Positions 387 to 4,863 of a stretch of 5,434 nucleotides of DNA are shown here, one piece after another. The notes under the pieces are model-generated. The model did not search any database, had not been told where the DNA came from, and saw only the letters and a list, made by a program, of their open reading frames with translations. Position 1 is the first letter of the stretch; each line of letters begins with the position of its first letter. Origin of the DNA: Paraspadella gotoi (Eukaryota > Animalia > Chaetognatha); assembly GCA_051294375.1 (NCBI GenBank), contig JBJCIZ010001257.1:1-5434 (forward strand). The letters are read 5' to 3'. A program made the position numbers and the translations under genes.

Positions 387-1556
387 TTCATCAACTGTAA
401 AACCTTTAACAGGCTCATCTTCCAAAACGTATCATTTTTATAAGCATTTCTTCCCTAAATTGTGATAATATTTATATTGTTGCGTCAGTTTTTCAATAAA
501 AAAGTCTTAGTTTCTTTGATGAAACGGCCTGATCTTTTGATAGCAGCATCAAATTGGATCAAACACAACTATATATTGTATTGTAACATTCTTTTAATAG
601 TTTCCTGTAATATTTCTGTTGTTTAACCAATCGATTTAAGACGAGTCCATCAAATGATTCTCTGAGGAATCGCCTCCTGCCCACTTTTGAATTTCTAATT
701 CAGGAATCAATTGTTTTCTCAACACAGAATCCGTTAAGGTCACTGTATAAAATTAGATTCTTTTGTTTTAAAATTGCCTTTTGCACTAAATATGACTTTC
801 CATTTCCTGTCGACGCCATAAAGGTAAAAACAAACTATTTTCTTTATATTTATCAGTTGGTCGATTAGTTTTGTCTCGATTTGCCTATCAATGTGTAAAT
901 TTTTTTCGGATTCAGTAGCTTTAATAGTTTTGCTTGAAATAACTTCAGTTAAATGACACTTTTAATTTCACTAGAAGTAAGTTCTTGAATTTTAAATTTA
1001 ATATCGCTGTTGTTTTCAAATAAATTTTCAACAAGAGCAACGTCAGACCATTCAATAAATCTTTTTCTTGCATTAACAAAAGCAAAGTGGTCCATCGATT
1101 TGGTTTCAGTCTGTTTGCAAGATTTTCGAAAATCGCTCCAAGTCTTCCCAAATTTATTTTAAGTTTGGGTTATCTTTGGTCAATAATATTTTTCTCTAAT
1201 TCATTTTTCACAGTGATTAGAGTTTCTTTAACGCCTCTTTGTTACAATCCAGTGATAAAGGAAATGAGAAGAATCTTTTAAGAAATCTTTCCAATAACCT
1301 TTATAACTTTCAGCTATACATTTCTGTTCAAAAGATGCTCGTTTGCAACGAAAACAAAAATAGCTACAAAAGGTTGATGCGATCCTCAAAAAACTTTATT
1401 CAAAAATCCGAGCCTCGTTCCGATTCCTGATCTGACGATGTTTTCAGATTCTTCCTCAGATTCTGAATTTAATTAAGCGATTCTTTAACTTTTTCAATTC
1501 GGACAGTTGATTTGAATGAGTCAGCAGCGGTGGAGCTACTATTTTGTTTATTTTAT
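387..1556 (-). pseudogene. Second tandem copy of the NTPase unit (approx. residues 28-413), frameshifted as written and truncated by the N-gap
   Basis: Colinear with 2521-3680: both start ttcatcaactgtaaaacctttaacaggctc and end ggagctactattttgtttattttat. Differences are mostly single-base indels, often in homopolymers. It could be a real pseudogene or an intact copy read with errors. Confidence 0.75.
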
Positions 1557-3759
1557 TTTCTTGATAACTTTCTTGAACTGAAAAATGTGGTTCTTCTTCA
1601 TTCTTTTCTGTTTGCAAAAGTAAAAGTTCATCATAAAACTTGAAATCATCCAAACAGTTATCAAACAACATGTGCCTTCTTAAAAAGTTAATAATTGCAT
1701 ATAAGTTCTCTTTGAACTTACGAAGGAGTGTAGGAATTTCATCTTCAGAAAGATTTAAAATTCTAAAAGGCTCCTCTGGCGAATATCGTCGCAATAACAT
1801 TAGAACAGCTTGTCTTATCTGTCTTGCTTCCATAGCCGAAGGGGAGCGGTTCAACTTTATACACTCTGTAATGCATTCAAGTTGTAGACGAACAAAATTG
1901 ATTTTTAAATATTTGAAGGGGTTGATAGTTGTAAATTCTTGAAATGCAAATTTTCTTATGTTAGGATCCATTATAAAAGTGCCATCTTTAACTGTTTGAA
2001 TGAAATTTAATCTTAAAAAAGTTTTTATAAGTTCAATGCAGAAAGATTTTATATTATTATGAAAAGGGATGTATTTTTCTAGATTTTTCTTTACATTGTC
2101 ATGCAAATTTTCAAGCTTTTTATGATCAAAATCAGCCAAACTTTCTTCTGTTTGTTCTCTCAGCAAAATCTCCCTGACCTCTTTGATGCTAAGCAAGTTA
2201 ACAAGATGATCGTATGTAAATTTACCATGAAACAATGTTATTGCTTCTAGCATGACTTTTTCATCTGATTTCAGACCTTTAATGAACTTTATTATTATTT
2301 CATCTACTTTTTTCTTATCATCATCATCCTCATTATCCAGGTCATAAAAGACTGATTCATCTACTTTGCCGCATATTTTCATTATATTTTTGATGTGGTT
2401 TGCATGCATGAATAGTAGCTTTGGGTTATATGCAGAAAGTGATGCAACTTTTTCTAGCGAAAGTTCAGGTGGTAATTTAATCACTTTTTCAGCTAAAATT
2501 AATTCAAGATATTTAAGGCTTTCATCAACTGTAAAACCTTTAACAGGCTCATCTTCCAAAACGTTCATTTTTATAAGCATTTCTTCCCTAAATTGTGATA
2601 ATATTATTATTGTTGCGTCAGTTTTTTCAATAAAAAGTCTTAGTTCTTTGATGAAACGGCCTGATCTTTTGATAGCAGCATCAATTGGATCAAACACAAC
2701 TATATATTTATTGTAACATTCTTTTAATAGTTTCTGTAATATTTCTGTTGGTTTAACCAATCGATTTAAGACGAGTCCATCAAATGATTCTCTGAGAATC
2801 GCCTCTGCCCACTTTTGAATTTCTAATTCAGGAATCAATTGTTTCTCAACACAGAATCCGTTAAGGTCACTGTATAAAATTAGATTCTTTTGTTTTAAAA
2901 TTGCCTTTTGCACTAAATATGACTTTCCATTTCCTGTGACGCCATAAAGGTAAAACAAACTATTTTTATATTTATCCAGTTGGTCGATTAGTTTTGTCTC
3001 GATTTGCCTATCAATGTGTAAATTTTTTTCGGATTCAGTAGCTTTAATAGTTTTGCTTGAAATAACTTCAGTTAAATTGACACTTTTAATTTCACTAGAA
3101 GTAAGTTCTTGAATTTTAAATTTAATATCGCTGTTGTTTTCAAATAAATTTTCAACAAGAGCAACGTCAGACCATTCAATAAATCTTTTTCTTGCATTAA
3201 CAAAAGCAAAGTGGTCCATCGATTTGGTTTCAGTCTGTTTAGCAAGATTTTCCGAAAATCGCTCCAAGTCTTCCCAATATTTATTTAAGTTTGGGTTATC
3301 TTTGGTCAATAATATTTTTTCTAATTCATTTTTCACAGTGATTAGAGTTTCTTTAACGGCCTCTTTGTTACAATCCAGTGGTAAAGGAAATGAAGAAGAA
3401 TCTTTTAAGAAATCTTTCCAATAACCTTTATAACTTTCAGCTAATACATTTCTGTTCAAAAGATGCTCGTTTGCAACGAAACAAAAATAGCTACAAAGGT
3501 TGATGCGATCCTCAAACGTATATTCAAGATCCGAGCCTCGTTCCGATTCCTGATCTGACGATGTTTCAGATTCTTCCTCAGATTCTGAATTTAATTTAAG
3601 CGATTTCTTTAACTTTTTCAATTCGGACAGTTGATTTGATTGGTCAGCAGCCGGTGGAGCTACTATTTTGTTTATTTTATATGCAACATTGCTCTCCCAA
3701 ACAATGTTTTTTTTGGATTTATTCATTACTTTCCTCTTGGGTTCAGAAGATTTTGCCAT
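1456..3759 (-). CDS. STAND-class (NB-ARC/AP-ATPase-like, NLR-like) P-loop NTPase with an unrecognised N-terminal region; true C-terminus uncertain
   Basis: Uninterrupted 767-codon ORF. Motifs occur in NB-ARC order: Walker A LFYLY-GVTGNGKS (nt 2943-2920), Walker B YIVVFDPID (2703-2680), sensor-1-like TIIILSQ, RNBS-C-like PVKGFTVDESLKYL, GxP-like SAYNPKLL (YNP 2430-2422), winged-helix-like LKSDEKVMLEAITLFHGKFTYDHL and MHD-like FIMDPNIRKFA (MDP 1971-1963). Family assigned by motif recognition, no search run. The last 32 aa re-run residues 28-59 and the TGA follows indels in the duplicated copy. Confidence 0.85.
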   Translation of the reverse strand: MAKSSEPKRKVMNKSKKNIVWESNVAYKINKIVAPPAADQSNQLSELKKLKKSLKLNSESEEESETSSDQESERGSDLEYTFEDRINLCSYFCFVANEHLLNRNVLAESYKGYWKDFLKDSSSFPLPLDCNKEAVKETLITVKNELEKILLTKDNPNLNKYWEDLERFSENLAKQTETKSMDHFAFVNARKRFIEWSDVALVENLFENNSDIKFKIQELTSSEIKSVNLTEVISSKTIKATESEKNLHIDRQIETKLIDQLDKYKNSLFYLYGVTGNGKSYLVQKAILKQKNLILYSDLNGFCVEKQLIPELEIQKWAEAILRESFDGLVLNRLVKPTEILQKLLKECYNKYIVVFDPIDAAIKRSGRFIKELRLFIEKTDATIIILSQFREEMLIKMNVLEDEPVKGFTVDESLKYLELILAEKVIKLPPELSLEKVASLSAYNPKLLFMHANHIKNIMKICGKVDESVFYDLDNEDDDDKKKVDEIIIKFIKGLKSDEKVMLEAITLFHGKFTYDHLVNLLSIKEVREILLREQTEESLADFDHKKLENLHDNVKKNLEKYIPFHNNIKSFCIELIKTFLRLNFIQTVKDGTFIMDPNIRKFAFQEFTTINPFKYLKINFVRLQLECITECIKLNRSPSAMEARQIRQAVLMLLRRYSPEEPFRILNLSEDEIPTLLRKFKENLYAIINFLRRHMLFDNCLDDFKFYDELLLLQTEKNEEEPHFSVQESYQENKINKIVAPPLLTHSNQLSELKKLKNRLIKFRI
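2521..3680. repeat. Direct repeat partner of 387-1556; tandem period 2124 bp at the junction
   Basis: Identity ends at 1556 and 3680 (3680-1556 = 2124 = 708 codons). KINKIVAPP occurs at residues 28 and 736 of the ORF. Confidence 0.95.
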
Positions 3760-3938
3760 TTTAGATTTTAGATTTTGATTAAGTAAAAAAAGTTAATTGA
3801 GTCTTTTAAAAGATAATTTTGTTTGCACTGAAAAAAAAAACATTTAAATAAGTTTTATTTGAACAAAACAATCATAGTGGTAAGATTTTTAATTGTTTAC
3901 AACAATAAACCAAAAACAAATAAAATCGTTATTATACT

Positions 3939-3942
3939 ATTA
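3939..3942 (+). repeat. Left 4-bp target-site duplication ATTA
   Basis: Immediately precedes the TGT at 3943; identical to 4567-4570. Confidence 0.8.
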
Positions 3943-3996
3943 TGTAGTCGGGCATTGCCTAGGTTCACCCCGCTAAAATCATGACACTTTCAGTTG

Positions 3997-4066
3997 TACC
4001 GAGTGGCTCATTGAGTAAAGCCATCAGCTCATACCACTAGTACCGGGTTTCAATCCCAACCCGTAC
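3997..4066 (+). promoter_or_regulatory. tRNA-like cassette with Pol III A and B boxes in the 5' LTR
   Basis: A-box-like TGGCTCATTGAG (4004-4015) and B-box-like GGTTTCAATCCC (4046-4057) at tRNA-like spacing. Confidence 0.55.
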
Positions 4067-4110
4067 CTACCCTGCGGAAGCGTGAGGAGGCATAAGCCCG
4101 CCCTGGGCAT

Positions 4111-4167
4111 GGCAAACCTCAAGCTGGTCCAAGCCAGGGACCCGTTCCATGGCTGCTAGAGGGGGTT
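4111..4167 (+). ncRNA. Candidate degenerate twister-like ribozyme in the 5' LTR
   Basis: GCTGGTCCAAGCCAGG (4123-4138) resembles the twister P4/L4 core GCCGGUCCCAAGCCCGG. CCTC (4117-4120) can pair with GAGG (4159-4162), which is followed by GGGTT. Several consensus positions are missing. Confidence 0.35.
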
Positions 4168-4215
4168 ATAGAAGTTACGGACAGTCATCTCAGCCCACTA
4201 GCGCCTTATCCACAC

Positions 4216-4230
4216 TGGTGAGGCCCATCC
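4216..4230 (+). promoter_or_regulatory. Putative primer-binding site (TGGTGAGGCCCATCC)
   Basis: Starts with TGG, the complement of tRNA 3' CCA, one base after the 5' LTR end, which is the canonical PBS position. Cognate tRNA not identified. Confidence 0.7.
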
Positions 4231-4329
4231 TTGTCCGAGCGTTATTCCAACCTTCTGATTTCCAGGCCCTTGGTCTAGCTGAGATTGCTCCCCTCCCCCA
4301 CTGGAAGCAGTGCAGGGTGGTTACAATCT

Positions 4330-4337
4330 GGGGGGCA
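4330..4337 (+). promoter_or_regulatory. Putative short polypurine tract (GGGGGG-CA)
   Basis: G6 run directly upstream of the 3' LTR's TGT. Confidence 0.65.
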
Positions 4338-4566
4338 TGTAGTCGGGATTGCCTTGGTTCACCCCGCCCGCCTAGAATCATGACACTTTCAGTTGTGACC
4401 CGGTGGCTCATTGAGTAAAGCCATCAGCTCATGACCACTAGGTACCGGGTTCAATCCAAACCCGTTACCTTCCCCGCGGGAAGCGTGTGGACGGACGCCG
4501 TTCCAATGCTGTCTAGAGGGAAGTTACGGACAAAGTCATCTTCAGCCCACGTAGCGCATATCCACA
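4338..4566 (+). repeat. 3' LTR (229 bp, lacks ~50 bp present in the 5' LTR)
   Basis: TGTAGTCGGG...ATATCCACA. Shares blocks such as aatcatgacactttcagttgt, gtggctcattgagtaaagccatcagctcat and gaagttacggaca with the 5' LTR. Confidence 0.9.
4397..4468 (+). promoter_or_regulatory. tRNA-like cassette with Pol III A and B boxes in the 3' LTR
   Basis: TGGCTCATTGAG (4404-4415), D-arm-like GCTC..AAGC, anticodon-loop-like CTCATGA and B-box GGTTCAATCC (4448-4457). Acceptor and anticodon stems pair poorly, so this is not a functional tRNA. Confidence 0.6.
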
Positions 4567-4570
4567 ATTA
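4567..4570 (+). repeat. Right 4-bp target-site duplication ATTA
   Basis: Immediately follows the ACA ending at 4566; identical to 3939-3942. Confidence 0.8.
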
Positions 4571-4614
4571 GAAATCGATCGAAATTCGCATTTTATCATG
4601 CCCAAAAGTTGTCT

Positions 4615-4670
4615 ATTGCGCTGATGAAGGTTTGAAACAAAAACAAGTTTGAGCCAAACAATGTCGGATC
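4615..4670 (+). ncRNA. Candidate degenerate type-I hammerhead ribozyme (Penelope-like layout)
   Basis: CTGATGA-A (4621-4628), stem GGTTTGAAAC/GTTTGAGCC (4629-4655), then AAACAAT-GTC (4656-4665). The G of GAAA is absent and stem I pairs poorly. Confidence 0.35.
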
Positions 4671-4863
4671 TGCCTACGATAATTATTAATTATCGATTTA
4701 TTAATTAATTAATAATTTAATATGTAATAATAATTTTAAATTTATATTCAACTTATCATCATCGATGTCCTTAAAATTGCGGTTAGGACAGTTATTAAAT
4801 ATGTTTTGTTATACATTTTATCAAAACAAACCAAATATCCTCTATTTTATTTTATGACATCCT

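Follow-up and report, generated by a model that had tools for sequence, protein, structure and literature searches.

A dispersed miniature LTR retrotransposon of Paraspadella gotoi with tRNA-like boxes in both LTRs and a likely twister-derived module in one

The locus and its neighbouring features

The window is the whole stretch of DNA that was analysed, 5,434 nucleotides of contig JBJCIZ010001257.1 (assembly GCA_051294375.1, forward strand) from the chaetognath Paraspadella gotoi. Its subject is a 624-bp element at 3943-4566, whose GC content of 54-58% stands out from the 26-29% of the flanks. About 185 bp away, head to head with the element, starts an intronless frame of 767 amino acids on the reverse strand (window 1456-3792, first Met at 3759), the element lying upstream of that start. 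The encoded protein has a P-loop and weak Pfam matches to AAA/STAND families. Its look-alikes are NB-ARC-like or otherwise generic NTPases, it has six relatives, the best of which is 777 aa long at 26% identity, and a word-index search with the protein gave no matches.

Two stretches of the window, 387-1520 and 2521-3650, form a tandem duplication with a spacing of about 2.13 kb. The left copy (387-1520) is frameshifted and adjoins an N gap at 361-386, and the pair represents either a recent gene duplicate or an assembly artefact. The 1.1-kb copies align with 1105 matches, 6 mismatches and 33 gap runs, a pattern of indel noise, so single-base gaps in the copy of the element studied here may be sequencing errors and are weak evidence.

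Three further features were seen. A second very high-copy repeat occupies about 4641-4800; it starts near 4641 with variable upstream flanks, and the contigs that carry it diverge after 4685. Its AACAAG start may point to Helentron-associated elements. At 4621-4639, CTGATGA...GAAAC looks by eye like a hammerhead core, with unconvincing stems and no Rfam match. At 234-306 there are three repeats spaced 25 bp apart and rich in TTAGGG-like words.

Anatomy of the element

The element is a non-autonomous, gene-less miniature LTR retrotransposon (TRIM). Its 5' LTR (3943-4214, 272 bp, delimited by alignment and by contig ends) and its 3' LTR (4338-4566, 229 bp) lie on the forward strand and both run from TGT to ACA; aligned with each other they agree at 203 positions, with 10 mismatches and 18 gap runs. 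A target-site duplication of 4 bp, ATTA, occupies 3939-3942 to the left of the element and 4567-4570 to its right. The two flanks differ at the fifth base, and an identical pair of 4-mers would be expected by chance in these flanks at a rate of about 0.011.

Between the LTRs lies a non-coding internal part of 123 bp (4215-4337, forward strand), which begins with C-TGG and ends with G6-CA. The putative primer-binding site is at 4216-4226, its TGG starting at 4216, and the polypurine tract is the run of six G at 4330-4335, followed by CA. The original prediction had called a TRIM from the TGT...ACA LTRs, the ATTA duplication, the TGG, the G tract and the 123-bp core, and all of these are present at the coordinates given here. 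The element has no coding capacity, its longest Met-started frame being 89 aa long and running over LTR sequence. Self-priming was considered and rejected, as no complement of the primer site occurs within 3943-4566.

The tRNA-like part of the LTRs and the Helenus families

A tRNA-like head, likely a Pol III promoter, covers approximately 3997-4068 (forward strand) of the 5' LTR, as judged from box matches and folding. The original prediction placed A and B boxes in each LTR, and both LTRs do carry them. The A-like box is at 4004-4014 in the 5' LTR and at 4404 in the 3' LTR, with 2 mismatches to the A-box consensus. The B box is at 4046-4057 in the 5' LTR, its start falling at 4046-47, and at 4448 in the 3' LTR, with 1 mismatch; the contigs described below favour C over A at 4458, and with it a perfect match. 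In the 3' LTR 44 nt separate the two boxes, a tRNA-gene-like spacing. The pattern TRGCY...GGTTCRA at this spacing, which is matched exactly in the 3' LTR only, turned up in 101 of 20000 shuffles.

The tRNA-like head is the only part of the element that folds well in comparison with shuffles (z -2.2 and -3.6). Neither ARAGORN nor Rfam called a tRNA on the element. No TTTT occurs within it, the first lying at 4591, and 917 of 5000 shuffles were likewise free of TTTT.

TRIMs with tRNA-like A and B boxes (TRGCY, GGTTC) in their LTRs have been published as Helenus, or TRIMp3 (Kojima 2024, PMC10886601). According to the sections of that paper drawn on here, they range in size from 311 to 1263 bp, have 4-bp duplications in animals and 5-bp duplications in fungi and plants, have in animals primer sites in common with Gypsy elements, and show an LTR excess of up to about 21-fold; the Pol III function of the boxes is itself unproven there. 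The element described here is like them in being a non-coding TRIM of less than 1 kb with A and B boxes in both LTRs, a primer site, a purine tract, a 4-bp duplication as in the animal families, and an LTR excess. The label "animal-type" applies to it in respect of the 4-bp duplication only. It differs in having about 145 nt of LTR after the tRNA part, which hold the twister-like module, and in its A box, which ends in TGA in both LTRs in place of the YGG typical of most Helenus families. The same sections report no ribozyme for Helenus.

The head contains a CAT anticodon-like loop (4021-4034 and 4421-4434), and by eye the stretch around it resembles several rust-fungal Helenus LTRs among those printed in the same sections. 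From sequence likeness, this could perhaps reflect a shared tRNA-Met origin.

By Kojima's definition, and going by its sequence, the element would be a new family of Helenus type, a kind already published. The original prediction depended on there being no match to a described family, and 11 short motifs gave no match to published Helenus families in the parts of the paper covered, where line breaks could hide matches. Its primer site likewise matched none of the Helenus primer sites printed and searched there. The family may already be named in Repbase or Dfam. The suggested novelty holds in part: no Helenus-type LTR bearing a twister-like module came up in the open papers covered, and tRNA-bearing TRIMs as such are already known as Helenus/TRIMp3 (PMC10886601). 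The Ty3/Gypsy partner that had been proposed gains support by analogy, from the 4-bp duplications and Gypsy primer sites of the animal Helenus families as given there.

Copies of the element in sequencing-run contigs

Contigs from four public sequencing runs were examined; 9 of the 11 runs listed have part of the stretch. In run X1 the summed contig depth, which is not a copy number and serves here for a contrast of orders of magnitude, is up to 1.66 million in the LTR bins, 11,000-136,000 in the internal bins and about 52 in the unique left flank. The right end of the LTR is fixed, with 20 of 32 listed contig pieces stopping at 4214 and 26 of 32 within 4213-4216. Letters past 4214 disagree among the contigs that continue (23, 5 and 8 of them in X1, X5 and X8; agreement 0.42-0.55). 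On the left, 69 contigs of X1 reach back to the TGT start, where other flanks are seen. One X1 contig spans 3700-3969, so the left junction of this particular element is present in X1, and X1 may come from the sample that was assembled. Run X8 may be an RNA run, and its contigs carry no information on expression. None of the contigs listed spans the whole element, and its internal part is repeated in all four runs.

The element is a dispersed, very high-copy repeat with fixed ends and unlike flanks. Other copies with the same termini, as the original prediction expected, were found in the contigs of four runs, with identical ends and varied flanks. A pattern scan of metagenome contigs gave a single match, judged to be chance, in a gene that looks bacterial, and a scan of viral and prokaryote contigs gave none.

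Depth in the LTR bins exceeds that in the internal bins 10- to 100-fold, and this excess could also be explained if the repeat were a tRNA-headed SINE or a free solo unit that moves via a LINE, with the two-LTR form as a minor by-product. RTE-type non-LTR elements are known to carry twisters in the part of the literature cited (PMC8501958), which would suit such an origin. It is very improbable in our view: the TGT and ACA ends are sharp and have no tail, the element has a primer site, a purine tract and a 4-bp duplication, and the LTR excess has its counterpart in the Helenus families cited above.

A type-P5 twister-like module in the 5' LTR

A type-P5 twister-like module lies on the forward strand at 4080-4137 of the 5' LTR, supported by a descriptor, a model of phage P5 twisters and contig variants. 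In the type-P5 register, P2 pairs 4080-83 with 4096-99 and is followed by GA at 4084-85 and by the T1 pseudoknot, GGA/UCC, which pairs 4086-88 with 4128-30 in Watson-Crick pairs throughout. A P1 slot of 4 nt separates T1' from UAA at 4093-95, where the predicted cut is 4093/4094. GC is at 4100, T2 pairs 4100-01 with 4133-34, and P3 and P4 complete the module, with L4 at 4127-34 in a P4/L4-like hairpin at 4124-4137. A P5 stem is possible between 4076-79 and 4145-48.

The 5' LTR has every one of the catalytic and pseudoknot bases (AA, GC, GA, T1, T2 and L4) in type-P5 order; L4 is one T short in the window copy, and the T is restored in contigs. The rice twister has four positions that tolerate no change, G13, G30, A46 and G48, and all four are present in the 5' LTR together with both A at the cut site. 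P2 has 3 of its 4 pairs in the window, the outer pair being C-C. The P1 hairpin is missing, with a slot of 4 nt in the window and 6 nt in the contigs. P1 is dispensable for twister cleavage in vitro. In the portion of the rice twister data available, by our own column counting, the equivalent C-C mismatch kept a relative activity of about 0.40 and a U25-A49 pair 0.77.

In the 3' LTR the twister core is lost after about 4494, where about 45 nt are absent, and the essential A46 position (4488) is a T. Because the 3' core is lost, this copy cannot give unit RNA.

The descriptors were written post hoc, after the sequence had been seen, and three registers were tried on the one hairpin at 4124-4137; with that limit, the P5-order descriptor was found in 22 of 100000 shuffles, in 8 when T1 had to be all Watson-Crick and in 5 with the P5 stem added. 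The module is its sole placement in the window. For calibration, 230 viral-contig loci were picked by an L4/P4 motif that was partly taken from this element. A twister was called in 180 of 235 motif matches in these loci, and Rfam confirmed Twister-P5 in all 20 of the loci tested. Several of the viral contigs have two twisters 0.5-3 kb apart.

Compared with these natural placements, the module has some common and some rare traits. The GAGGA/UCC pseudoknot form of the element occurs in 22 of 79 distinct phage P5 placements. P2 is fully paired in 75 of 82 natural placements, and in 24 of the 82 it is a fully paired 3-bp stem, so the 3-nt strand of the contigs is natural. The natural P1 slot is 14-39 nt long in 78 of 79 P5 cases, as against 4-6 nt in the element.

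Our own model, built from 16 of 33 P3-bearing loci and not fully independent of the element, ranked 4080-4137 first in the window at 16.0 bits (E 0.0032), in the same register and with P1 skipped. Against the 16 bits of the element, two true P5 loci that had no part in building the model scored 34.5 and 47.5 bits, and the L4/P4 motif alone scored 16-21 bits in control loci. A further model, R1 (24 loci, without P3), found the same site at 8.1 bits and E 0.23. Rfam gave no ribozyme match to the element at E up to 10, leaving it far below threshold. Neither the module nor the 395-nt unit had a better folding energy than shuffles (z 0.19 for the module region).

Several of these results would also be expected of an ordinary Helenus-type TRIM in which the twister likeness arose by chance, in an LTR rich in GC and in hairpins, or in which another, decayed tRNA piece supplied the P4/L4 hairpin as its T-arm. 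The post hoc descriptors with their three registers, the lack of an Rfam match, the folding of the region, and the choice of the model loci by a motif from the element that scores as highly by itself all point that way, and one chance-like phage match (L060) shows the same weak pattern as the element. The hairpin has a 5-bp stem and a 7-nt loop, with CCA 11 nt later, and a B-box-like match with 2 mismatches lies at 4126. However, the shuffle rates are low, the GAGGA/UCC form matches a covariant form of natural twisters, the 8-nt loop of the contig form with three C does not suit a T-arm, and no D-arm or anticodon arm aligns. We regard an origin by chance or from a T-arm as unlikely.

A second twister-like half module, with P2, GAGGG, a P1 hairpin and GC, lies on the forward strand at 4155-4207. 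Its descriptor was found in only 2 of 20000 shuffles, which also speaks against chance, and our own model gave it 4.5 bits (E 1.5). It lacks the AA at the cut site and is predicted to be inactive.

The two other registers were rejected because each is defective at a place critical for activity. The type-P3 register joins GAGGG at 4159, the P1 hairpin, P2 with 4 of 4 pairs, GC at 4203 and P3; in it the cut-site AA is replaced by CAC in the window and by CACN in contigs. In the available portion of the published mutant data for rice twister, A8C has a relative activity of 0.05-0.07 and A7C of 0.04-0.05 (by our matrix reading, with blank cells dropped), and twister variants 0A and 1A do not cut. 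In the type-P1 register (UAA at 4093, GAGGG at 4159), P2 has 1 of 4 pairs, and the matching GGC is 5 nt too far upstream.

Variants of the module among related contigs

In three contigs close to the 5' LTR the A at 4085 is retained, the P1 slot is 6 nt long and the P2 strand 3 nt. A46 is present in all three covering contigs. These three share the C-C outer P2 pair of the window, and P2 in contigs has 2 of 3 pairs, or 3 with a bulge. In the loose-end consensus of 31 X1 contigs (agreement 0.70), the P1 slot is a 6-nt palindrome and P3 is an 8-bp, fully paired stem. Since deletion of the middle of a hairpin leaves a palindrome, the palindrome would by itself be no proof of selection.

Two loose-end groups among the contigs listed, 125 contigs together, cover P4 and L4. 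Both are canonical, with a 5-bp P4 and an 8-nt L4, in 35 of the 125, a subfamily close to the copy in the window. The other 90 have one C fewer after L4, which makes P4 imperfect or turns the hairpin into a T-arm-like one. No compensatory changes within the family were demonstrated in the contigs.

The original prediction of a twister-like core in the 5' LTR survives with restrictions: the core is there, above chance and in type-P5 order only, with its P1 collapsed and no Rfam call. Going by sequence, it appears to be more than chance in that order. The module is likely twister-derived, and for most copies weak cutting or none is predicted. By analogy with the rice twister, intact copies may cut well, given that P1 is dispensable, the C-C mismatch leaves part of the activity and a canonical-P4 subfamily exists.

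Proposed mechanism

We tentatively prefer, at a little under an even chance, a Helenus-type TRIM that is driven by Pol III and mobilised by a Gypsy partner, with a twister-derived module that is weak or dead. Transcription by Pol III would start near 3997, from the tRNA-like boxes of the 5' LTR, and as the element contains no terminator of the TTTT type, its RNA would run on past the 3' LTR into the flank, where the first TTTT lies. The terminal repeat of this RNA would then be used in ordinary strand transfer. A tRNA would prime the first strand at 4216, the G tract would prime the second, and a Gypsy integrase would make the 4-bp duplication. The module may have arrived together with the promoter, on one SINE-like piece. 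Loss of the P1 loop and the mismatches in P2 and P4 would then have weakened it, because a cut RNA loses the terminal repeat on which ordinary replication depends.

In a different reading, which we hold to be doubtful although a serious possibility, the family would be retrozyme-like. Intact copies would have a type-P5 twister in place of a hammerhead in both LTRs, and a unit of about 400 nt would circularise and be copied by a Gypsy partner. The cut, about 95 nt past the Pol III start, would remove the tRNA-like head and replace the terminator, leaving a unit of about 395-405 nt that has no terminal repeat. The 6-nt palindrome in place of P1 may let the two LTRs of one transcript pair, and full elements would then cut better than solo LTRs.

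The invariant positions and cut-site bases of the 5' LTR, A46 in the covering contigs, the canonical P4/L4 subfamily, the fully paired P3 and the palindrome of the loose ends are all consistent with such a route. Plant retrozymes use one of this kind in the parts of PMC4918200 cited, and palindromic minimal hammerheads cut as dimers in the part of the literature covered. The absence of TTTT from the element also fits, although it is a weak argument given the shuffles that lack it too. Against the route, P2 is weak, P4 is imperfect in most contigs, and in this copy the 3' LTR shows a T at the A46 position and no core.

Relation to known systems

The module shares with type-P5 twisters (Rfam RF02684; PMC5408937), as described in the parts of that source used here, the order P2'-GA-T1'-P1-UAA-P2-GC-P3-P4-L4, the catalytic bases and the GAGGA/UCC form. 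It differs from them in a P1 of 4-6 nt, an outer P2 mismatch, a P4 that is imperfect in most contigs, and a score below the Rfam threshold.

Plant LTR retrozymes (Cervera 2016, PMC4918200) are likewise non-coding LTR elements with a 4-bp duplication, a ribozyme motif in the LTR, a Gypsy-type primer site and a purine tract. In the sections of that paper drawn on, they have active type III hammerheads and circles of 600-1000 nt, and no tRNA-type promoter is reported for them, whereas for the element described here activity and circles are possibilities.

Perere-3 of Schistosoma mansoni (Liu 2021, PMC8501958) resembles the element in that twister T-variants with an altered P1 are tied to a retroelement. 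The Perere-3 twister is of type P1, in an autonomous non-LTR element that is cut at its 5' end, in contrast to the type-P5 module in mid-LTR found here, as far as the cited parts of that paper go. Perere-3 is the sole link between twister and retroelement in the parts of the open literature searched. Full-text searches of open papers turned up no LTR element with a twister inside its LTR.

Cassandra and Ajax TRIMs also have a Pol III-type promoter inside their LTRs. Theirs is derived from 5S rRNA and not from tRNA, and in Cassandra the terminator is in the LTR (PMC10886601, in the sections covered).

What the finding means depends on the module. If it is dead, the element represents a new Helenus family that has captured a ribozyme, now a relic, and its interest is modest. 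If intact copies cut, the family would join TRIMs with Pol III promoters and LTR retrozymes that bear ribozymes, which have so far been known separately. It would give the twister a second concrete job in eukaryotes and extend LTR retrozymes beyond plants and hammerheads. It would also offer a very high-copy system for the circular-RNA route of LTR replication, and a form of twister that Rfam misses.
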